DNA of 64,000 bases from Candidatus Helarchaeota archaeon (lineage in GTDB: Archaea; Asgardarchaeota; Lokiarchaeia; Helarchaeales; RDOG01): the NCBI GenBank assembly GCA_019058315.1, contig JAHPZH010000002.1, forward strand, positions 1,229,910-1,293,909, in the 5' to 3' direction. The notes beneath the pieces were generated by a model that was not told the origin of the DNA, searched no databases, and saw only the letters and a program-made list of their open reading frames with translations. Each line of letters opens with the position of its first letter. Within the stretch, counting starts at the first letter, position 1. The position numbers and the translations under genes were made by a program. Positions 33,924 to 64,000 of this stretch are shown here, one piece after another.

Positions 33924-35033
33924 ATGCAATTTGGAAGTCTCTTTATCCCCTATCTAATATCGGGGATAATTTCAATGGTAATTATAATAATTGTATGTAT
34001 AACATTAATTCATAGCTATATTAAATCAAAAAACAGTACCACAATCTTTTATATTTTCTTTTTCATGATGCTCGGAGTGTGGGCATTTACAACAACTTTT
34101 TTTCCTAGTATGGATACAATTGATTCAGCTTTATTATTACAAATTATAGGAATAATATCCATTTACTTTGGGTTTTATTCACTATTTATATTCCTAGAAT
34201 TAATAAACTATGATAAAATAAATGTAGTTCGGGCTGTTTTATTTGCCTCAGTTATAATAATTTTTCTAATTGTGATTATTATCGCCCCTCCTTTATTAAT
34301 ACAATATGATTACCTTCCAAATTTCGGTTATGCAAATAAAACTGTTTTTTTAATTACAGTACTACAAGGTATACTTTTGATTGGAATTGGGATAGAATTT
34401 TTTTTAACAGCTCTTCGATTAAAAAAAATAGCAGAAACACCTGCTCAAAAACAGCAAGCACTATGGTTCATGGCAGGTCCAGCGATTGGAATATTTGGGG
34501 GTGCTCTTGCTCCCATTTTTAGATTAATTATTAATTTTCCAGGTTTATTACTATTATTCGCTTCTATTGGAATGGCTTTATCTGGTTTGGCTTTTATCAA
34601 AGACCCAAATGTTGCTTTTTTTTTACCATTCAGAGTATATAATTTGATGGTTATTAATACTGTAGGAATAAATATTTTCCATCAAAAATTTAGTGGTTCT
34701 AAAGAAGTTAATGAAGTTTTAGTTTCTGGTATGATTACAGGGATTTCGAGCTTTATGGAAGAAGCATTAGGAGTGAAATCACAACTACGAGCGATTATCT
34801 TTGGAGATAGATATGTTTTATTAGATCTAAGGGAAAAATTTGGTGCCTTTATTGATTCGGAATCAGCTTCCAAAACTCTAAAAATAGCTCTAGAAAAATT
34901 TGCGGATTATTTTGAATCGAAATTTTCCGAATATTTAAATAAATCATCCAAAAATGTAAATGTCTATAAGTCAGCAATTGCTGGAGTTGAAAAATATTTC
35001 GGATTTTTACCTGGTTCTTGGAAATCACATTAA
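33924..35033 (+). CDS. 7-TM membrane protein with C-terminal longin-like domain
   Basis: Seven hydrophobic segments, then a beta-beta-alpha-beta-beta-beta-alpha-alpha pattern (LMVINTVGINIF...LVSGMITGISSF...FESKF). Confidence 0.7.
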   Translation: MQFGSLFIPYLISGIISMVIIIIVCITLIHSYIKSKNSTTIFYIFFFMMLGVWAFTTTFFPSMDTIDSALLLQIIGIISIYFGFYSLFIFLELINYDKINVVRAVLFASVIIIFLIVIIIAPPLLIQYDYLPNFGYANKTVFLITVLQGILLIGIGIEFFLTALRLKKIAETPAQKQQALWFMAGPAIGIFGGALAPIFRLIINFPGLLLLFASIGMALSGLAFIKDPNVAFFLPFRVYNLMVINTVGINIFHQKFSGSKEVNEVLVSGMITGISSFMEEALGVKSQLRAIIFGDRYVLLDLREKFGAFIDSESASKTLKIALEKFADYFESKFSEYLNKSSKNVNVYKSAIAGVEKYFGFLPGSWKSH

Positions 35034-54440: not shown

Positions 54441-55538
54441 ATGAATTTAATAATTATAGAGGACCCATTAAGAGAATTAATAATTGGCATAAACTATTTC
54501 ATACAAATATTAATATTTCAAATGGGTTTATTATTTATTAAACAATGGAAAAGCGGATTTAGAAAACAATCCCATAATAGAGTTGTTCTAAGTTATGGTT
54601 TTTATTATATCTTTTTAGCTATAAGTATTTTCTTCAATACTTTTTTCTACTATCAAGGACTCTCTAATCTTGCTTATGATAGGGTTCTTATCCTTTCTGC
54701 TTTCATAAGAGGAATAGGTGGAACATTATTTTCAATTAATATAGAAAATTTTATTCAAAAAGTTTTAAAAACGAGGTATTTATTTTCAATTTTCTTTATT
54801 ATTATATTGTTTGTAGTTCCATTATTTCAAAATAACCCACTTCTCTATCAAACCTTAAATTTCTTTAATTTATTCTATTTTTCGCTTCCATTTATTTTTA
54901 CATTATTTTTTATAAGAAATACCTTTGATGAAGTTAGGAAAAAATTAAAAATTTCCTTGTTTGGGATCGTTTTATTATTTTTAGGCATCTCTTTTTCTAC
55001 AGAAACACGCTTAGAATGGATCACAAGTATAATTCCTAATATTTCTCTCGTTAAAATTATTTTTCAACTAGTATCTGTTTTCGGAATTTTCCTTTTCTCT
55101 TATGGTGTTGCTGGATATTCATTTTCTTTAGAATTACAGTGGCAAAATAATTTGATATCTTTGTATATTATCGATATAAAAAGTAATTTCTGCCTTTATA
55201 ATAAAAATTATCTTGAGAGTGAGATTAAAAGTGAGCAAATATTTGCTGGGGGAATTGCTGGAGTTATAAAAATTATTAAAAAATTCACGAGTTCGCATAA
55301 AAACCTTGATGTTATTCATATAGAAAATAAATTTATTTTAATAGAATTCGGAAAGAATATTATTACAGCAATGATAATTAAAAAGAATTTATTAAATGCA
55401 AGATATATTTTGAAAGAAATTACAAGAATGTTTGAGTTCTATTTCTGGGATTATTTAGAAAATAGAGATTTAATAGCTGATAAATCAGAAATTTTTAAAC
55501 CAATGGAAATTATAATGAGAAATCTAATAAAATTATAA
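54441..55538 (+). CDS. 7-TM + longin-like protein, type A (pair 1)
   Basis: Seven TM segments; IRGIGG; C-terminal LYII...FAGGIAG...LIEFGK...FEFYF. Confidence 0.75.
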   Translation: MNLIIIEDPLRELIIGINYFIQILIFQMGLLFIKQWKSGFRKQSHNRVVLSYGFYYIFLAISIFFNTFFYYQGLSNLAYDRVLILSAFIRGIGGTLFSINIENFIQKVLKTRYLFSIFFIIILFVVPLFQNNPLLYQTLNFFNLFYFSLPFIFTLFFIRNTFDEVRKKLKISLFGIVLLFLGISFSTETRLEWITSIIPNISLVKIIFQLVSVFGIFLFSYGVAGYSFSLELQWQNNLISLYIIDIKSNFCLYNKNYLESEIKSEQIFAGGIAGVIKIIKKFTSSHKNLDVIHIENKFILIEFGKNIITAMIIKKNLLNARYILKEITRMFEFYFWDYLENRDLIADKSEIFKPMEIIMRNLIKL

Positions 55539-55551
55539 TTAGGATTCAAAA

Positions 55552-56622
55552 ATGACGTCTTATCCAATATTCGGACATTATAGAGGAATATTATTACCTC
55601 TTGAAATAATTATGACTGGTATAATTCTGGAAATCTCGGCATTTTTTTTCCTCAGATATTTAAAAAATAGAAAAGAATCGAGACCATCTGTGGTTGAACT
55701 AAGTTGGGGAATTCTCTTTTTAAGTTTTGGAATAGCATATGTAATTTATATAATTGGTGATTTCTTTTTTGTAAGTCGTGAATTTTTTCTTCTTCTTGCA
55801 TATACTTCTTTAACTATTGGTGGATTCCTCTATGCATATCAAGTTGAATCTTCTAAGATCATAAAAACAAAGTTTTTCTTCACTGGATTTACACTTCTTG
55901 TATTATTTCTATTTTTTTTAACAGTATTTATTGCTCCAACCTGGATTCAAACAGTCGCAAGCATAGCAGTTTTCCCTGCATATTCAATATTATTGATATA
56001 TTTTATAAAAATATTTCAAAAAATATGGGTTAGATATAAATTACACATAATAGGTCTATTTGCTGGTTTCTTTCTTTGGTTCTTAGGGTACACAGCAGTC
56101 TCAGATACGTCGATTGCACTTTTTAATACTTTAGATATCCGAATTTTTGGGGATTTTATAATTATAATTGGAATGATAATACTTGGTTTATCCTTAAATG
56201 CGATTCCTTCTTTGAATGAAATCGGATGGTCAGACCAGATCAAATATATTCTTCTAATCCATCAATCTGGAATCTGTTTATATAATGAAAATTTTAAGGA
56301 AAAGAGAGAAATAAATCAAAATGTTTTGGGAGGTGCTTTAGCAGCAGTAAAATTAATAATGGAAGAAAATTTGAAAAGAAAAGAAAAATTAAAAATGATT
56401 TCTAAGGCTGGGGATGTTTTTTTAATTGAAGAGGGTGAATATACTATTGGAACTTTAGTAGTTTCCCAAGAATTAGAAATTTTAAAATATTTTCTAAAAA
56501 AGGTTATTCAGCAATTTGAAGATTTTTTTAATGAATTTTTAAAGAAATGGGATGGGAATATAAAGGTATTTAAACCAGCGAAAGGGATCATTAATAAAAT
56601 ATTTTCAATTGAAAAGACATAA
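55552..56622 (+). CDS. 7-TM + longin-like protein, type B (pair 1)
   Basis: N-terminal YPIFGHYR; TM7 RIFGD; PSLNE; HQSGICLY...GGAL...WDGN. Confidence 0.75.
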   Translation: MTSYPIFGHYRGILLPLEIIMTGIILEISAFFFLRYLKNRKESRPSVVELSWGILFLSFGIAYVIYIIGDFFFVSREFFLLLAYTSLTIGGFLYAYQVESSKIIKTKFFFTGFTLLVLFLFFLTVFIAPTWIQTVASIAVFPAYSILLIYFIKIFQKIWVRYKLHIIGLFAGFFLWFLGYTAVSDTSIALFNTLDIRIFGDFIIIIGMIILGLSLNAIPSLNEIGWSDQIKYILLIHQSGICLYNENFKEKREINQNVLGGALAAVKLIMEENLKRKEKLKMISKAGDVFLIEEGEYTIGTLVVSQELEILKYFLKKVIQQFEDFFNEFLKKWDGNIKVFKPAKGIINKIFSIEKT

Positions 56623-56645
56623 ATTATTAAATATTTCGAAATTAT

Positions 56646-57086
56646 TTATTTGGATATTCTTTTCATTCTCCCTTTATTGAGAATTGCATAAACTCCTTCA
56701 CCTATAGCACAAACAACCCCCTCCCTGTTAATAACTTCTGAAAAGAGTCTAACTTCCTTTTTATTCTTATTTTTCACTTGGGACTTAATAGTGATCCTCT
56801 CGTTAATAAAAATCGGTCGTTTAAACTTAACATTCAACTCTTTTGTTACACCAACTAAATTTGCTATATGTAGAACGGTCCAACTCATTGCTTCATCCAT
56901 GACCGAGCTAATTATTCCTCCATGGACTAATTGTTCCCATCCACAAAGTTCCTTTTTAGGAGTGAATTCTGTAACTATAAAGGAATTGTCCTCTATAAAG
57001 AACTTTAGTTTTAAACCGATAGGGTTATTTTGACCACACACGAAACAATAACTTTCACCATTTCCAGATGGGATTTCTTTTCGCAT
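56646..57086 (-). CDS. PaaI-family hotdog thioesterase
   Basis: Motifs CFVCG..NPIGL and HGGIISSVMDE. Confidence 0.9.
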   Translation of the reverse strand: MRKEIPSGNGESYCFVCGQNNPIGLKLKFFIEDNSFIVTEFTPKKELCGWEQLVHGGIISSVMDEAMSWTVLHIANLVGVTKELNVKFKRPIFINERITIKSQVKNKNKKEVRLFSEVINREGVVCAIGEGVYAILNKGRMKRISK

Positions 57087-57205
57087 TTTATTAAGCTCAC
57101 ATTAACATTTTTTTATAATCTATATAATTTCGAAATAATAAGCTTTTAATTCTATAAATAATTAATATTCTGAAAATATCCAACTTTATAGAATTGGGAA
57201 GTCAA

Positions 57206-58309
57206 ATGGAATTATCTTATCGAGATCCTTTCAATGAAATCTCTATTGGTTTGAATTACGTAATTGCCGTATTCCTTCTGGAATTGGGAGTAATATTTAT
57301 TAAGCAATGGATTTTTGAGAGAAAGAAACAAGTAAAAAACGAATTTGGACTAGGTTATGGAATATATTTTTTAACTTTTTCAATAAGCAGTTTTCTATAT
57401 TTTTACATTATCGATCATGATATGTCTAAACAAGTTTTCGATTCATCTTTCATCTTAAGCATATTAATAAGAGGGATTGGTGGATTATTTTTTGCAATTA
57501 ATTTAGAATATCATGTTCAAAAGGTGTTAAAAACAAGATATCTTTTCTCGATTTCATCGATTATTTTGTTACCTATCATTACTTTTTCTTTAGATACCAC
57601 TTTCTTTTATCGGGTTCTAGATATATTTGATATTTTTCATTTGATTCTTCCTATTTATTTTACTAGTTATTTTATAAGAAATGCATTCGGTGAGATAAGA
57701 CAAAAGTTGAAATTTTCAGTATCGGGGTTCCTTTTATTTTTCATAACTTTGACCTTTTCTTCAAAATTACGTATAGAAATAATCGAAATTATATTTTCCT
57801 TTGCAAATATTATAATTTTTCTTTCTAAATTAATAGCAATATTGGCGATTTTTTTTGTTCTTTATGGTTTTACAGGATATTCATTTTATTTGGAAACACA
57901 ATGGAAAAATAATTTGATCTCCATACATATAATTAAAAGGAAAGAAAGAGTTAGCTTATATAATAGGAATTTTTTAAGTAGTGAGATACAGAGTGAAGCA
58001 TTATTTGCAGGTGGAATCACAGGAATGGTAAAAATAGTTAGTGATTTTACAGATTCCAATAAAACTCTCCAAGAAATTAATGTAGAGGATAAATTGATTT
58101 TATTAGAATTTGGGAAATACATTATTACAGGAATGATTATTAAAAAAAGGGTGTTAAATGCTAGATATATTTTAAAAGAAATAACTTCAAAATTTGAGTT
58201 TTATTTCCGTGAATATTTAGAAAATTACGAATTATTTTCTAGTTCATATACCCAAGCAGAACTATTTCGACCAATGGAAATGGTCATTAGAAATTTAATA
58301 AAAATGTAA
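57206..58309 (+). CDS. 7-TM + longin-like protein, type A (pair 2)
   Basis: Paralog of 54441..55538 (IRGIGG, QKVLKTRYLFSI, NARYILKEIT). ATG 57206 preferred as start. Confidence 0.75.
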   Translation: MELSYRDPFNEISIGLNYVIAVFLLELGVIFIKQWIFERKKQVKNEFGLGYGIYFLTFSISSFLYFYIIDHDMSKQVFDSSFILSILIRGIGGLFFAINLEYHVQKVLKTRYLFSISSIILLPIITFSLDTTFFYRVLDIFDIFHLILPIYFTSYFIRNAFGEIRQKLKFSVSGFLLFFITLTFSSKLRIEIIEIIFSFANIIIFLSKLIAILAIFFVLYGFTGYSFYLETQWKNNLISIHIIKRKERVSLYNRNFLSSEIQSEALFAGGITGMVKIVSDFTDSNKTLQEINVEDKLILLEFGKYIITGMIIKKRVLNARYILKEITSKFEFYFREYLENYELFSSSYTQAELFRPMEMVIRNLIKM

Positions 58310-58322
58310 TTTAGATGGTAAA

Positions 58323-59396
58323 ATGGTTGATTTTCCGATAGTTGGACCATATAGGGACTTACTGATGGCATTGGAACTAATTATTATATTCATTGTATTA
58401 CAAAATTCGTTATATTTTTTTCAAAAATATCGTAATAATAAAAAAAATGAAGTTCCTTCGTTTGTTGAATTTGATTGGGGTATAATTTTTCTAACATATG
58501 CGATAACGAGTATTGCTTATATTTTCAGTGCGTTTTTTTATGTTATTCGAGTTCATTTTCTTTTCATCGGTTATATTTCTGTAGCAACTGGAGGTTTAAT
58601 ATTTTCATATAGTGTAGAATCAACAAAAACTGTTAATACAAAATATTTCTTCACGCTTTTTACTACTTGTGTTATAATCCTACTAATAACTATTTTTGTA
58701 GTTGCCGAATCATTATTGCAAACATTTGCATATTTAGCTATGGGTCCCGCATTTACATTATTATTTTTCTACTTTTTTAAAGTGAGTAAGAAACTTTGGA
58801 CTGGATATAAACTGCATTCAATAGGTTTATTTCTCGGAGTTACTCTATGGTTTGTAGGATATATGGGAACTTCGGATGTGGCAGTTGGATTATTTGGGGG
58901 GTTATATATTAGGGTAATAGGAGACCTAGGAATAATATGTGGAATGCTATTAATCGGAATTTTCTTGAATTATATACCCTCCTTGTCTGAAATTGGTTGG
59001 CAACAAAAAATCAAATATATTCTTATATTAACTCATTCAGGAATTTGCGTATATAATGAAAACTTTAGAGAAAAAAGAGAATTACGCGAAATTATTTTAG
59101 CGGGAGCTCTATCTGGTATTAAATTGTATATGGAAGAAACTCTAAAAAGTTTTCCAAAATTAAAAACGATTTCCAAAGAAAATGAAGTGTTTTTATTAGA
59201 AGAGGGTAAATATATTATTGGAGTTTTAGTAGTTGAACAAGAATTAGAAATTTTAAAATACTTTTTGAAAAAAATAGTGTATGAATTTGAAGAATTTTTT
59301 CAAGATATCTTAAAAAATTGGAATGGGGATACTAATATTTTCAAACCTACTAAAAATATCGTCAATAATATCTTGTCTATTGAAAAATATATTTAA
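58323..59396 (+). CDS. 7-TM + longin-like protein, type B (pair 2)
   Basis: Paralog of 55552..56622 (FPIVGPYR, RVIGD, PSLSEIGW, QELEILKYFLKK). Confidence 0.75.
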   Translation: MVDFPIVGPYRDLLMALELIIIFIVLQNSLYFFQKYRNNKKNEVPSFVEFDWGIIFLTYAITSIAYIFSAFFYVIRVHFLFIGYISVATGGLIFSYSVESTKTVNTKYFFTLFTTCVIILLITIFVVAESLLQTFAYLAMGPAFTLLFFYFFKVSKKLWTGYKLHSIGLFLGVTLWFVGYMGTSDVAVGLFGGLYIRVIGDLGIICGMLLIGIFLNYIPSLSEIGWQQKIKYILILTHSGICVYNENFREKRELREIILAGALSGIKLYMEETLKSFPKLKTISKENEVFLLEEGKYIIGVLVVEQELEILKYFLKKIVYEFEEFFQDILKNWNGDTNIFKPTKNIVNNILSIEKYI

Positions 59397-59434
59397 TTTC
59401 AAAAATTTACTTTCAAAATCAAATACTATCAATA

Positions 59435-59460
59435 ATTTCGCTCTAGCGAAATCTTTTTTT
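59435..59460 (+). terminator. Hairpin followed by T-tract
   Basis: ATTTCGC-tcta-GCGAAAT followed by C and a T7 run, between pair 2 and pair 3. Confidence 0.5.
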
Positions 59461-59517
59461 GATTAATAATGTATTTGAAAACATGATAAGAAATTCAAAT
59501 TATGGGAGTTAATTCAA

Positions 59518-60588
59518 TTGATACAATTTCCAATTCAAGGTTCATTTAGAGAGATTATATTAATGGTTGAGATGATTATTGTTGTTTTGAATATTCAATT
59601 TGCGATAATATTTTTGAATCGGTATCTAAAACAAAAAGGGGTTAAAAATAATATGTATATAGCTTGGACAATACTATTTTTTTGCTTTGCAATTACTTAT
59701 TTCCTATTTATATTAACTGATTTCTATGTTTCTCCCAACGATCGCCCATTTTTTTTAAATATTAGCTATATTTTTATAGGTTCTGGTCAAACTTTATTAT
59801 TTTACAATATAGAAAGAGAAATGAAATCAGAAAAATATATTTTTACAAAGATTGTTTTAGGAGTTTTATCTTTCTTTATTATCAATACTATTTTTAATTT
59901 AATATATTCAACTCCCTTCTCTACAATTTATTGGGGGTTATTTTTCGTTCTTTTAATCATTTTTGGTAATAAATATTTAACCAGAATTAGACAAACTTGG
60001 AAATTGAATATATATGGCTTCATAATAGGGGCAACATTAACAATTATAGGGTGGGGGGGAATATCTGATTTAGGTATGAGTATTTTAGGTATAGAATTTC
60101 GTTTATTTGGTGATTTGTTTATAATTACCGGAACAAGTTTAATGACCCTATTTTTCGTTGGTTTACCTCGTCTATCTGAGATCGATTACTTCGAGAAAGT
60201 TAAAAGGATTTTTATAATGCATAATTCAGGAATACCAATATTCGAGCAAACTTTTAAAAAAGAACAAGATTTTAAAGAAACTGATTTAAGATCTTCACTA
60301 TTTGCGGGGGGATTGACCACAGTATCACAATGGATTACGGATTTAATCCAAAGTAAAGGTCACTTGGAGATAGTCGATCATGGAGATGTAAAAATAATTT
60401 TTGAATATGGTAAATATACAATAAATGTTTTAATTGTTGAAGAAGTGCTTAATATTTTAAAAAACAAATTGAAAACAATCACAAATGAAGTTGAGAATCT
60501 ATATCAAGACATTCTTCCAACTTGGGAGGGAGATATGTCTCCGTTTGAATTGTTAAAAAATATAATTCAACAAAATTTTGAAATTTAA
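59518..60588 (+). CDS. 7-TM + longin-like protein, B-like (pair 3)
   Basis: Motifs FPIQGSFR, RLFGD, PRLSE, HNSGIPIF, FAGGL and WEGD. Confidence 0.75.
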   Translation: MIQFPIQGSFREIILMVEMIIVVLNIQFAIIFLNRYLKQKGVKNNMYIAWTILFFCFAITYFLFILTDFYVSPNDRPFFLNISYIFIGSGQTLLFYNIEREMKSEKYIFTKIVLGVLSFFIINTIFNLIYSTPFSTIYWGLFFVLLIIFGNKYLTRIRQTWKLNIYGFIIGATLTIIGWGGISDLGMSILGIEFRLFGDLFIITGTSLMTLFFVGLPRLSEIDYFEKVKRIFIMHNSGIPIFEQTFKKEQDFKETDLRSSLFAGGLTTVSQWITDLIQSKGHLEIVDHGDVKIIFEYGKYTINVLIVEEVLNILKNKLKTITNEVENLYQDILPTWEGDMSPFELLKNIIQQNFEI

Positions 60589-60616
60589 TTTGGTTTAATT
60601 TCCTAAGTGAAGTAAA

Positions 60617-61735
60617 ATGTTACAATTACTATTAGAAAGAATCCCACCACTAATCAGAGAATCAAACTTCCCTTTAGAAGGTCTATTTAGAGAGCCACTT
60701 TTAATTCTTGAAGGAATTATTATTCTTTTAACATTTCAATATGGAATTTATTTCTTCTATAAATTTGCAAAAGAAGAGAGGGAAAAAAATTATATGATAA
60801 GAGCTTGGGCTACTTTCTTTCTAAGCTATACCTGTAATATTATCTTTTTTCTTATTAGCGATTTCTTTTCAACTATATATTATATTCGCCAAATATATAT
60901 TGACTTTGGATATATTATATTGGGACTTGGAGCGTTATTCTTTTCATATAATGCAGAACGTGAAATGCAGCAAAAAAAACATTTTTTCACAATAATTCTA
61001 ACAATATTATTAGGCCTACTCATTTTAGATACAATTTTATTAGTTGCTCCCCCTGGCGTTATAGCATTATTTGTGAATATACCATTTATTTTTGTATTAT
61101 TACTATATATTATAAAATTTACATCCAAAATAAAAGAAAAATGGAGATTAAATATATATGGTTTTTTAATTGGTATGTGCATCTGGATTTCTGGATATGC
61201 ACTTGTTACAGATCTAATGGTTAATTCATTTGGTACAATTGCAAGATTTATTGGAGATATTTTAATTATAATTGGTATAAGCTTAATATCACTTCTATTC
61301 ATCGGATTGCCTAGTCTGACAGAGTTTGAATGGCCAAAAAAAATGAAAAAAATATATGTAATGCATAAATCGGGAAAATATATCTCTGATTACAATTTTC
61401 AAGAGAATTTAACTGGAACTGAAGAATACAAAGATTTACCCAAATTAATCACAGGTGGATTGACAGGTATAAATAAATTAATTGATGAAATTGTCCATAG
61501 CAAAGAAGGTTTAAAAATTATGGATCATAAAGATGTAAAAATAATTTTTCAATACGGAACTTATCTTATAGCTGTGATTATCGTGGATGAAGCATTAGAT
61601 ATATATAAAACAAAACTAAAGAAAATGATAGATTATTTAGAAATGCTCTACGAGACCTATCTCCCCACTTGGGATGGAGATTTAACCCAATTTCTAATTA
61701 TTAAGCCTATAATAAAACGCTTCTTTACATTATAA
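60617..61735 (+). CDS. 7-TM + longin-like protein, B-like (pair 3)
   Basis: Motifs FPLEGLFR, RFIGD, PSLTE, HKSG, ITGGL and WDGD. Confidence 0.75.
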   Translation: MLQLLLERIPPLIRESNFPLEGLFREPLLILEGIIILLTFQYGIYFFYKFAKEEREKNYMIRAWATFFLSYTCNIIFFLISDFFSTIYYIRQIYIDFGYIILGLGALFFSYNAEREMQQKKHFFTIILTILLGLLILDTILLVAPPGVIALFVNIPFIFVLLLYIIKFTSKIKEKWRLNIYGFLIGMCIWISGYALVTDLMVNSFGTIARFIGDILIIIGISLISLLFIGLPSLTEFEWPKKMKKIYVMHKSGKYISDYNFQENLTGTEEYKDLPKLITGGLTGINKLIDEIVHSKEGLKIMDHKDVKIIFQYGTYLIAVIIVDEALDIYKTKLKKMIDYLEMLYETYLPTWDGDLTQFLIIKPIIKRFFTL

Positions 61736-61786: not shown

Positions 61787-62317
61787 TTAAACAGATGTTT
61801 TACTCAAAATTATTTTTGCAAAGTTATAAAAGGCTTCGTTAATCATAATATCAGCTTTTGCAGAGGTTTCAAAAAAACCATCTGCTTGCAGCATTTGTGC
61901 TAATTGTTCTCCCTCTTCCTTGGTAATTTGTCTGCTATCTTCTAAATCAACTTTATTCCCAACAATAATGAAATGAGCATCATTTGTGAAAGATTTTAAA
62001 TCGCTATGCCAATTTGGTATATTTTCAAAAGAATCTCTATCTGTAATTGAATAGACTAATAATGCAGCTTGAGCACCTGCAGCATATTTTTTTCTCAATT
62101 CCTTAAATTGTTCTTGACCTCCAATATCAAAAATTACAAATGTAACAGAATAATCGCCACTTTCACTAATATCAATCTGTCTTTCATAAACATTATATCC
62201 CAAAGTTGATAAATATTGACCCTCAAATCTATTGTTAATATATCGCTCAACTAACGAGGTCTTACCAACCGCAGCGTTGCCAAAAAGTACTAATTTGAAT
62301 TTATATGAGGCCGCCAT
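61787..62317 (-). CDS. Rab-like small GTPase
   Basis: G1 GNAAVGKTS, G2 STLG, G3 DIGGQ, G4 NKVD, G5 ETSAK. Confidence 0.95.
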   Translation of the reverse strand: MAASYKFKLVLFGNAAVGKTSLVERYINNRFEGQYLSTLGYNVYERQIDISESGDYSVTFVIFDIGGQEQFKELRKKYAAGAQAALLVYSITDRDSFENIPNWHSDLKSFTNDAHFIIVGNKVDLEDSRQITKEEGEQLAQMLQADGFFETSAKADIMINEAFYNFAKIILSKTSV

Positions 62318-62546: not shown

Positions 62547-63056
62547 TTAACCCACAAGTACTTTAGCAAATGTCAAAAACGCGTGATCAATCCCTATATT
62601 TTCCTTTGCGGAAGTTTCAAAAAAACCATCTGCAAATAATTCCAATGATAAATCTTCCCCTTCTTGAATGGTAACAACCCTTTGATCTACTAAATCAACT
62701 TTATTTCCAATCAAAATAAATCGAGCACCATCAGTGAATTCCATTAAATCATTATACCAATTTCTAACATTTTCAAAAGAATCTCTGTTTGTAATGTCAT
62801 ACATTATAAGTGCTGCATTAGCTCCTTTCGAGTATTGCTTTCTCAATTCTGTAAATTGTTCTTGTCCACCAATATCAAAAATTAAAAATGATATTCGATT
62901 ATTACCCATTTCGATAATTTTTTCTAGCACATTATATCCTAATGTAGAAATATAATCTTCTTCAAATTTATTATTAACATACCTATTAACTATCGAAGTT
63001 TTTCCGACTGCCGCATTACCATATAAAATAATCTTGAATCTATAAGTAGGCTCCAT
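62547..63056 (-). CDS. Rab-like small GTPase (paralog)
   Basis: G1 GNAAVGKTS, G3 DIGGQ, G4 NKVD, G5 ETSAK. Confidence 0.95.
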   Translation of the reverse strand: MEPTYRFKIILYGNAAVGKTSIVNRYVNNKFEEDYISTLGYNVLEKIIEMGNNRISFLIFDIGGQEQFTELRKQYSKGANAALIMYDITNRDSFENVRNWYNDLMEFTDGARFILIGNKVDLVDQRVVTIQEGEDLSLELFADGFFETSAKENIGIDHAFLTFAKVLVG

Positions 63057-63133: not shown

Positions 63134-64000
63134 TTATTTTGATAAAAAATGTGAACTAAATTTTTTCAATCCCTTTAGAGCAGAAAGTTTTACCTTTTTA
63201 TTTAATTTTAAATCTGATATTACGGATTCCAAATATTTTATTGAATTATCCATCTCTTTTCTATCAATGGGGTATGGTTCACCATCTTTTCCACCAAATG
63301 CAAGAGCGTATTTAACTGGATCTCGAAATTTAATCTCTTTATCAAAAATCACAGAAGATACAAAGGATAAACCTCGAATCATCCCTGGACCAACTCCTTT
63401 AGTAGCCACAAATTCTTCATAAGTACGAGGTTGAAATTCGTATAAATTTTTTAGAACTTTCCATTTAACACGACGAGGTATTAGTTTATAATAATATTTA
63501 AATTTAGGAAGCATGCTCCCCTCTTCAAAATAAGTCGATAATGTTGTTTGACCTAATTCAGAACGCAATTGAATGGAATTAAAAAGATTTAACGTTTTTT
63601 TGGGTCTTTCTTTAATTAAATCTAAAGTGGTTTGCCGAATTTCCTCATTTTGTCTATAAGTTAAATCCAATACATCTTGATGTTTAATCTGGCTTAAAAT
63701 CTCCTCTTCTGGTTCATCTATGAAATCTGTGACATTATTAGAATACCAATGATATCTACGAGACATTCTATTATCTGGATTGAGACCTTGTTGAACGATG
63801 GTCCAGTTACCCTCTTTATTCACAAAAAAAGTATGAATATATAAATTATAACCATCTTGTATTACCGAATTATCTACTTTTGCAATAATTTTACTAATAT
63901 ATTTTAATTTATTCAAATAATCTTCTGAAAATTCAAATTTTTTTGAGATTTTATTCAAGTCTTCTAATGTTTGTAGGCTACGTTTACCCTTTCCACCAGC
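63134..64000 (-). CDS. DUF763-family protein, 5'-truncated by the window
   Basis: The frame continues to the edge (AGGKGKRS); motifs AKVDNSVIQDGY.LY.H, VQQG, RRYHW, GVGP and FGGKDG.PYP. Confidence 0.85.
   Translation of the reverse strand, partial: AGGKGKRSLQTLEDLNKISKKFEFSEDYLNKLKYISKIIAKVDNSVIQDGYNLYIHTFFVNKEGNWTIVQQGLNPDNRMSRRYHWYSNNVTDFIDEPEEEILSQIKHQDVLDLTYRQNEEIRQTTLDLIKERPKKTLNLFNSIQLRSELGQTTLSTYFEEGSMLPKFKYYYKLIPRRVKWKVLKNLYEFQPRTYEEFVATKGVGPGMIRGLSFVSSVIFDKEIKFRDPVKYALAFGGKDGEPYPIDRKEMDNSIKYLESVISDLKLNKKVKLSALKGLKKFSSHFLSK

Follow-up and report, generated by a model that had tools for sequence, protein, structure and literature searches.

Paired seven-helix membrane proteins with longin-like domains in a Helarchaeota genome: a conserved two-gene cassette and candidate partner of Ras-like GTPases

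Asgard archaea are rich in eukaryote-like small GTPases and in longin and roadblock proteins. The closest known systems to the genes described here are the longin heterodimers of eukaryotes, namely TRAPP Bet5-Trs23 (TRAPPC1/C4), Mon1-Ccz1, BLOC-3 (HPS1-HPS4) and Fuzzy-Inturned of CPLANE. In this work we examine a locus from a genome of Candidatus Helarchaeota archaeon (5.8 Mb, 30% GC, 12 contigs). Its closest proteins in databases belong to metagenome-assembled genomes of Promethearchaeota, Lokiarchaeota and Helarchaeota, which places it in the Asgard class Lokiarchaeia. Six co-oriented genes of 356-372 codons, which we call A, B, A', B', C and D, span positions 54441-61735 of the window, by which we mean the whole stretch of 64,000 nucleotides that was analysed (contig JAHPZH010000002.1, positions 1,229,910 to 1,293,909). 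They encode membrane proteins with a predicted bundle of seven transmembrane (7TM) helices and a longin-like domain behind it. Our results support the view that A and B form an old, conserved two-gene unit and are no local accident. We further propose that their products form a heterodimer that docks or regulates a Ras-like GTPase, which sequence comparison and structure prediction make probable, if well short of certain.

The likeness to the eukaryotic longin heterodimers lies in the longin fold itself (structural Z-scores of 10.4-12.8 over residues ~225-356), in two related subunits that are predicted to pair via helix alpha1 and strand beta3, and in a genomic association with Ras/Rab-like GTPases. 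In contrast to the soluble eukaryotic factors, each subunit here carries its longin domain on a seven-helix membrane domain of its own. Furthermore, Mon1-Ccz1, BLOC-3 and CPLANE carry three consecutive longin domains per subunit, but the proteins of this locus carry a single one each, at residues ~220-356. Another useful comparison is with MglB, the Roadblock/LC7 GTPase-activating protein (GAP) of MglA, and with solved Asgard roadblock and longin structures (9jue, 7f8m, 8yqg), which have a related alpha/beta fold (Z 10-11.7). These proteins are obligate dimers with GTPase partners, but they are soluble homodimers without a 7TM domain.

The obligate heterodimeric 7TM receptors of eukaryotes, class C G-protein-coupled receptors (GPCRs) such as GABA-B with its GB1 and GB2 subunits, resemble the membrane part. 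Both have a seven-helix bundle with the N-terminus out and the C-terminus in (Z 10-12.9 over ~200 residues), a topology that is deduced for our proteins. A two-subunit design would also be shared, with one conserved and one divergent subunit at this locus, and so may signalling to a GTPase. That said, there is no Pfam 7tm match, the Z-scores lie within the range of unrelated helical bundles and the proteins lack a large extracellular domain for ligand binding. Any signal would be passed via the longin domain to a small Ras-like GTPase, and not to a heterotrimeric G protein.

Tran et al. 2024 (PMC10933270) point out that genome layout is seldom informative for matching regulators to GTPases, and that in MK-D1 the GTPase genes do not as a rule share operons with genes for roadblock or longin proteins. 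They saw no enrichment beside GTPase genes for these soluble MK-D1 regulators, in contrast to the 7TM-longin family, which is enriched there. Asgard '7TM proteins' and structural clusters annotated as GPCRs are mentioned in a 2026 preprint, which has neither longin fusions nor pairs (PMC13734099). Our search of the full-text literature returned no paper on a 7TM-longin fusion or its pairing, and a feature search of the ESM Atlas gave only unnamed archaeal 'hypothetical protein' clusters. The locus is set apart from known systems by a longin domain fused to its own 7TM domain, by a differentiated A/B cassette and by its enrichment beside GTPases.

An earlier reading of the window, made from the letters alone and called here the sequence-only reading, noted that these genes come in pairs (A-B, A'-B' and C-D) and suggested that each pair is a heterodimeric receptor. 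All six open reading frames (ORFs) are present where it had placed them:

54441-55538, plus strand: gene A, an A-type 7TM protein with a C-terminal longin-like domain, 365 amino acids (aa), the variable subunit
55552-56622, plus strand: gene B, a B-type 7TM protein with a longin-like domain, 356 aa, the conserved subunit, 13 bp past A
57194-58309, plus strand: gene A', the second A-type copy, 371 aa counted from the TTG at 57194, the ATG at 57206 being the likelier start
58323-59396, plus strand: gene B', the second B-type copy, 357 aa, 13 bp past A'
59518-60588, plus strand: gene C, B-type by sequence and phylogeny, 356 aa, with a TTG start, leading the C-D pair
60617-61735, plus strand: gene D, B-type, 372 aa, 28 bp past C

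The conservation of the pairing was analysed in 46 loci, drawn from public contigs and ~33 Lokiarchaeia genomes in five families of the class. Only B-type homologues were used to choose the loci, therefore the presence of an A-type gene is a genuine test of pairing. Family genes were typed with one profile per type, built from 29 A-type or 33 B-type sequences; profiles made from the six window proteins alone missed A-type genes in loci L008-L011 and L044, which the larger profiles recovered. An A-type gene lies immediately 5' of B on the same strand in 42 of the 46 loci (one A is cut by a contig end), a count over loci that are not independent, as some come from the same genus and some are the same sequence in two assemblies. 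The order is invariably A then B, with a median gap of 14 bp between tandem family genes. The same layout is found in a very divergent pair (L045), and two loci (L013 and L023) hold pairs of the C-D type. We also observed an A-B-A-B double cassette in a further genome (L039, G116).

Whole genomes give a consistent picture. In five well-assembled genomes from five genera each strong A match abuts a strong B match, and there is no solitary A or B among these strong matches; single A and B genes in relatives had been named beforehand as the finding that would speak against the pairs. The genome studied here has four A-type genes, all immediately 5' of a B-type gene, and six B-type genes, which are the four behind A plus C and D. 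If a cassette is defined as an A directly 5' of a B on the same strand with a short gap, A-B and A'-B' are cassettes and C-D is not. Two of the three pairs in the sequence-only reading have held up as conserved A-B units, while the third, with both members B-type, is a pair of a different kind.

The phylogeny of the family points in the same direction. In an IQ-TREE analysis of 98 sequences, the A-type genes and the upstream gene of L045 form one clade, with a support of 92 in the Shimodaira-Hasegawa-like approximate likelihood-ratio test (SH-aLRT), and the B-type genes and the downstream gene of L045 form another (SH-aLRT 97). A FastTree analysis of 137 sequences agrees on both clades. The patristic distances of 34 A-B pairs are strongly correlated between the two (Mantel r 0.87, against a maximum of 0.37 in 2000 permutations), and nearest neighbours in the A and B trees have matching partners in 20 of 34 cases, where 1.0 is expected. 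In all five multi-pair genomes the true A-B assignment ranks first of all permutations, with a narrow margin in three of them. The A and B trees thus mirror each other, which indicates that the cassette has been inherited and duplicated as a unit. This is the co-duplication that the sequence-only reading had suggested looking for.

The two cassettes of the window illustrate one such duplication. A and A' are 48% identical as proteins and B and B' 52%. At the DNA level the cassettes share 66% identity and no identical stretch exceeds 23 nt, in agreement with the earlier description of a duplicated two-gene cassette. Given this DNA identity, and without long identical tracts, the duplication must be old. 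The same figures rule out recent gene conversion between the cassettes. A close relative (L001, 78-80% identical) has A-B, the thioesterase gene described below, C-D and both GTPases, but is without A'-B', which is either a loss there or a gain here.

The C-D pair has another history. C and D are sister subclades inside the B-type clade (support 99-100), and the C-then-D order recurs in L001, L023 and L013, the last of which is cut by a contig end. This nesting suggests that C-D arose from a B-type gene duplication within the order and that there is no third A-B cassette. By its sequences, C-D is a younger pair of a different kind.

The two subunits differ markedly in how strongly they are conserved. 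The motifs DP..E..IG.NY and IRGIGG can be read in the translations of A and A', and [YF]P[IL]xGx[YF]R, RxxGD and PxLxE in those of B, B', C and D; the Asp that the B-like proteins have in TM7 aligns with Gln in A and Lys in A'. All of the motifs quoted in the sequence-only reading are therefore there, but they are not of equal standing. Across relatives the B motif residues P5 (26/27), G8 (24/27), R/K11 (22/27), R197 (26/27), G200 (23/27), D201 (20/27), P219 (26/27) and E223 (27/27) are conserved. Among the A motifs, conservation is limited to an acidic residue, E/D12 (26/29). On these alignments the B motifs are class-wide and the A motifs lineage-specific. Over the same 26 loci the mean identity of the membrane part is 32% for B and 23% for A, and ~16 positions of the TM region are conserved in at least 85% of B sequences, compared with 2 in A. 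The conserved charged residues of the B membrane part include E18, E27, D70, R76, E99 and R197, and an E-x-x-W motif right behind TM7 is kept in both types. This asymmetry fits a division of labour inside one complex.

A physical contact between the subunits is suggested by structure prediction. The full-length A+B model reaches interaction prediction scores from aligned errors (ipSAE) of 0.62, 0.55 and 0.62, and the best of three controls scores 0.00. At least 92% of the contacts are common to the runs and the partner has a predicted local distance difference test score (pLDDT) of at least 75. The ipSAE mark we used is reached by 58 of 80 solved complexes and by 2 of 110 mismatched pairs, although these counts are approximate for models made with custom alignments. 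The predicted interface has two parts. In one, TM1 packs against TM1 (A 9-24 with B 11-38), and in the other, helix alpha1 and strand beta3 of both longin domains meet (A 261-297, B 254-290). Alpha1 and beta3 form the classical dimer interface of longin and roadblock domains. The type-specific N-terminal motifs lie at the predicted TM1 interface, where A-E12 would touch B-R11, both of which are conserved in their type.

The 7TM and longin labels given by the sequence-only reading are borne out by AlphaFold models of A and B, which were built from the alignments of 29 A-type and 33 B-type sequences. Both models have seven TM helices (pLDDT 82 for B and 78 for A), and in both the C-terminal domain runs beta-beta-alpha-beta-beta-beta-alpha-alpha, the order of a longin fold, in which helices enclose a five-stranded sheet. 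In B these elements are strands 230-237 and 242-247, helix 256-273, strands 280-285, 288-294 and 298-304, and helices 309-331 and 343-352. In an exhaustive structural search, longin structures align with B residues 229-356 (Z 11-12.8 over 116-128 residues); the matches include VAMP7, Sec22, Trs23/Bet5, sigma-adaptins, Fuzzy, Mon1-Ccz1, BLOC-3 and a solved Lokiarchaeal longin. Roadblock, MglB and LAMTOR matches end near residue 330 (Z 10-11.7 over 95-106 residues) and leave the two C-terminal helices uncovered, which makes longin the better fit.

A profile of B run against PDB sequences has a single match, the TRAPP longin Trs23 (E 0.005), and Foldseek against the PDB gives nothing at E <= 0.001, with weak rows that are all longin or roadblock. 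For Pfam we considered the longin families Sybindin (PF04099), Longin (PF13774) and the Intu and Fuz longins, with the gathering score as the criterion. Among the 33 B-type members all longin hits are sub-threshold, the best being Sybindin at E 0.04 in three members, and Intu_longin_1 at 0.008 and Fuz_longin_1 at 0.016 in one each. As the longin fold aligns although no Pfam family reaches threshold, longin-like is a fair name for the modelled domain at the level of fold. The best matches of the B membrane part (residues 7-221) are adhesion and class C GPCRs (Z 10-12.9), with the alkaline ceramidase ACER3 at Z 11.8 and rhodopsins at Z 10.2; Z-scores under ~13 are common for helical bundles. In its model, this part is a GPCR-shaped seven-helix bundle without an assignable family. 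Basic loops after TM1, TM3 and TM5 suggest, by the positive-inside rule, that the C-terminal domain is cytoplasmic; the N-terminus would then lie outside.

Two GTPase genes follow the pairs of this locus:

61787-62317, minus strand: Ras-family small GTPase 1, convergent on D (Pfam Ras PF00071, E 1.9e-48)
62547-63056, minus strand: Ras-family small GTPase 2 (Pfam Ras, E 6.5e-48)

Across the 46 loci a Ras-like gene is found within ~4 kb in 17, often as the immediate neighbour. The genome studied here has 79 GTPase-like ORFs, and 11 of its 44 TM-longin genes lie within 3 kb of one, compared with 7.4% among the remaining ORFs of 200 aa or more, a 3.4-fold enrichment. The neighbours are also of a particular type. 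One clade (SH-like support 99) unites the four GTPases that adjoin pairs in this genome with the two of L001, while the other 44 short GTPases of the genome lie outside it, so that four of 48 belong to it and all four stand beside pairs. A good example is a second locus of this genome (C11:127048-132965), which reads GTPase, B<, A<, GTPase>, A>, B>, that is, two divergent A-B pairs with one GTPase per pair, and whose GTPases fall in the same clade as the two of the window. The GTPase link is statistical and lineage-specific. A DUF763 gene follows both GTPases here (63134-63958, minus strand) and in L001 (7257-8420).

From these results we propose the following model. A and B, and likewise A' and B', would together make up one heterodimeric membrane complex. 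In each of the two subunits a seven-helix bundle, with its N-terminus outside and its C-terminus inside, would be followed by a cytoplasmic longin domain. The subunits would join via TM1-TM1 and via alpha1 and beta3 of the longin domains, creating a two-longin platform as in eukaryotic GTPase regulators. B would be the conserved subunit, with invariant charged residues in the membrane, and A the fast-evolving one. The platform may then dock or regulate a dedicated Ras-like GTPase at the membrane, as a guanine nucleotide exchange factor (GEF), a GAP or an anchor, and the 7TM part may perhaps sense a signal. We infer the physical heterodimerisation of A and B from their sequences and models; the regulation of a GTPase and the sensing of a signal are speculative. 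A bolder version, closer to the heterodimeric receptors of the sequence-only reading, is that A-B serves archaea as a seven-helix receptor and that its longin platform acts directly on a dedicated Ras/Rab-like GTPase to switch it, a receptor and GEF in one. A would set the ligand or partner specificity and B would carry the transducing core. We regard this version as unlikely. If true, the complex would be a prokaryotic 7TM receptor-to-GTPase pathway that prefigures both the longin Rab-GEFs and GPCR-style signalling.

Several observations weigh against a GTPase-associated A-B heterodimer, and a number of them are what one would see if the proteins were independent paralogues, acting as homodimers or monomers, with a tandem layout that reflects duplication and shared regulation, as in an array of related sensors that differ in specificity. 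Members of the family can do without a differentiated partner: the 11 undifferentiated relatives in this genome comprise one triple and eight genes that stand alone, 12 of 14 loci in other Asgard classes hold a full-length homologue on its own, and one locus of the 46 (L031, G083:C91) has a B but no A-type gene in 2.1 kb upstream, the only one of its kind. In L040 (G053:C6) A is shortened to 257 aa, with ~90 profile positions of the TM part gone, and an intact B follows. C-D consists of two B-types, and A-B-B triples, derived from a recent B duplication, occur in L034/L037 (G122, G029). The complex model supports binding of A to B. However, close cousins of a true partner also pass, so the model can't tell the heterodimer from A-A or B-B homodimers, with which the pass is also compatible. 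Longin and roadblock dimers are moreover common among solved structures, and resemblance to these may explain the pass. Adjacent genes are co-inherited and co-duplicated regardless of contact, hence co-phylogeny alone is no proof of binding. Finally, Pfam gives no sensible family for the six proteins at E up to 1, neither a longin nor a 7tm family, and Roadblock/LC7 (PF03259) is found in 1 of 33 B-type members at E 0.005, below threshold. Independent proteins are nonetheless hard to reconcile with A and B standing next to each other, in the same order and ~14 bp apart, in 42 of 46 loci from five families, or with reciprocal A and B clades of mirrored topology. Independent sensors should show more single losses, moves and duplications, whereas strong A and B matches never stand alone in the five well-assembled genomes, and the marked asymmetry in conservation fits subunits that divide the labour in one complex. 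For these reasons we consider independent action improbable.

The GTPase is the other point at which the proposed heterodimer can be challenged. The proteins may form a heteromeric membrane complex that is unrelated to small GTPases, e.g. a transporter, a channel or a membrane enzyme, with the longin domain as a dimerisation or regulatory module. In 29 of the 46 loci there is no GTPase within the stretch fetched, and in genomes crowded with GTPases the neighbours are perhaps incidental. Across lineages the pair-adjacent GTPases belong to at least three clades in a shallow FastTree, with the f4 genomes in other clades than that of the window, and one orthologous GTPase partner for the whole class is thus unsupported. 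The invariant charged residues in the B membrane part (E18, E27, D70, R76, E99, R197) are as in transporters and enzymes, the ceramidase ACER3 scores near the GPCRs (Z 11.8 vs 12.9), and longin domains also have non-GTPase roles, e.g. in SNAREs (PMC10933270). Chance neighbours would not, however, account well for the 3.4-fold enrichment within 3 kb in this genome, for a single specific GTPase clade whose four members among 48 short GTPases all lie beside pairs, or for the one GTPase per pair at C11. A ceramidase-like enzyme is further disfavoured by the conserved B positions, among which there are no His residues of the PAQR/ceramidase type. A complex with no connection to GTPases is, in our judgement, decidedly unlikely, and the A-B heterodimer that docks or regulates a Ras-like GTPase remains the reading we prefer.

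The solitary homologues are also informative about how the pair may have evolved. The full-length homologues from other Asgard classes group in a clade separate from both A and B (SH-aLRT 96), and no GTPase gene lies within 3.5 kb of them. As they are mostly solitary, the 7TM-longin architecture needs no differentiated partner. The simplest history would be a single-gene ancestor, presumably homodimeric because longin and roadblock domains dimerise, followed by the differentiation of A and B at or near the base of Lokiarchaeia. The deep order of the A, B, other-class and undifferentiated clades was not recovered in our trees, and A and B are not established as sister clades. The family offers a clean natural case of the emergence of a paralogous heteromer, from a solitary gene to an A/B cassette and on to cassette duplication and a secondary B-B pair.

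The 7TM-longin pair is a concrete candidate for a regulator matched to its GTPase: a putative membrane-embedded two-subunit platform, found Lokiarchaeia-wide and repeatedly beside a specific Ras-like clade in this lineage. Binding and regulation of the GTPase by the pair would make this the first input-to-GTPase module to be defined in Asgard archaea. Eukaryotes activate Rabs with longin-heterodimer GEFs, and the pair would then represent a membrane-tethered stage of that design.

Two further features lie between the genes of the locus:

56646-57086, minus strand: 4HBT-type thioesterase gene, between B and A' (Pfam 4HBT, E 1.7e-10)
59435-59461, plus strand: hairpin with a 7-bp stem and a T7 tract, a plausible transcript end within the 121 bp that separate B' from C

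The sequence-only reading had described an identical 13-bp gap in the first two pairs. The gaps A-B and A'-B' are indeed both 13 bp, and the orthologous A-B gap in L001 is as well, but they are identical in length only, as their sequences differ (TTAGGATTCAAAA vs TTTAGATGGTAAA). The TTG start of gene C is kept in L001. It had also been noted that the third pair follows a hairpin and T-tract. The hairpin and the CTTTTTTT that follows it are present at 59435-59461, but such sites are no more frequent than chance, with two terminator-like sites in 8.2 kb vs 2.5 expected from shuffled sequence. A sigma-70 promoter scan gave 55 sites vs 57 expected and is uninformative for an archaeon. The gaps within pairs (13, 13 and 28 bp) are too short for a promoter, whereas the 121-bp spacer between B' and C is long enough. 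The simplest reading of this layout is that there may be three transcription units, A-B, A'-B' and C-D.

The thioesterase gene has the same position, straight after B, in L001. It is a conserved neighbour with no evident link to the membrane proteins. An ORF of 140 aa lies antisense within gene D (60880-61302, minus strand); as the genome is AT-rich and the ORF sits inside a conserved gene, it is probably spurious.

The domain superfamily is much expanded in Asgard genomes, and in this one longin-like domains are found in 119 ORFs. These occur in other architectures too. At least 14 paralogues of ~1110-1140 aa carry a longin-like domain at the extreme C-terminus, and several of them are clustered on contig C3, e.g. 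at C3:1294819-1349016. Within the window, a solitary protein of 369 aa (33924-35033, plus strand) has a hydrophobic N-terminal part and a longin-like C-terminal domain, and belongs to a distant subfamily. In another genome (G052:C13:285046-287503) two adjacent frames of ~560 aa match the family profiles over the end of the TM part and the longin domain, which points to a longer version of the tandem-pair architecture.

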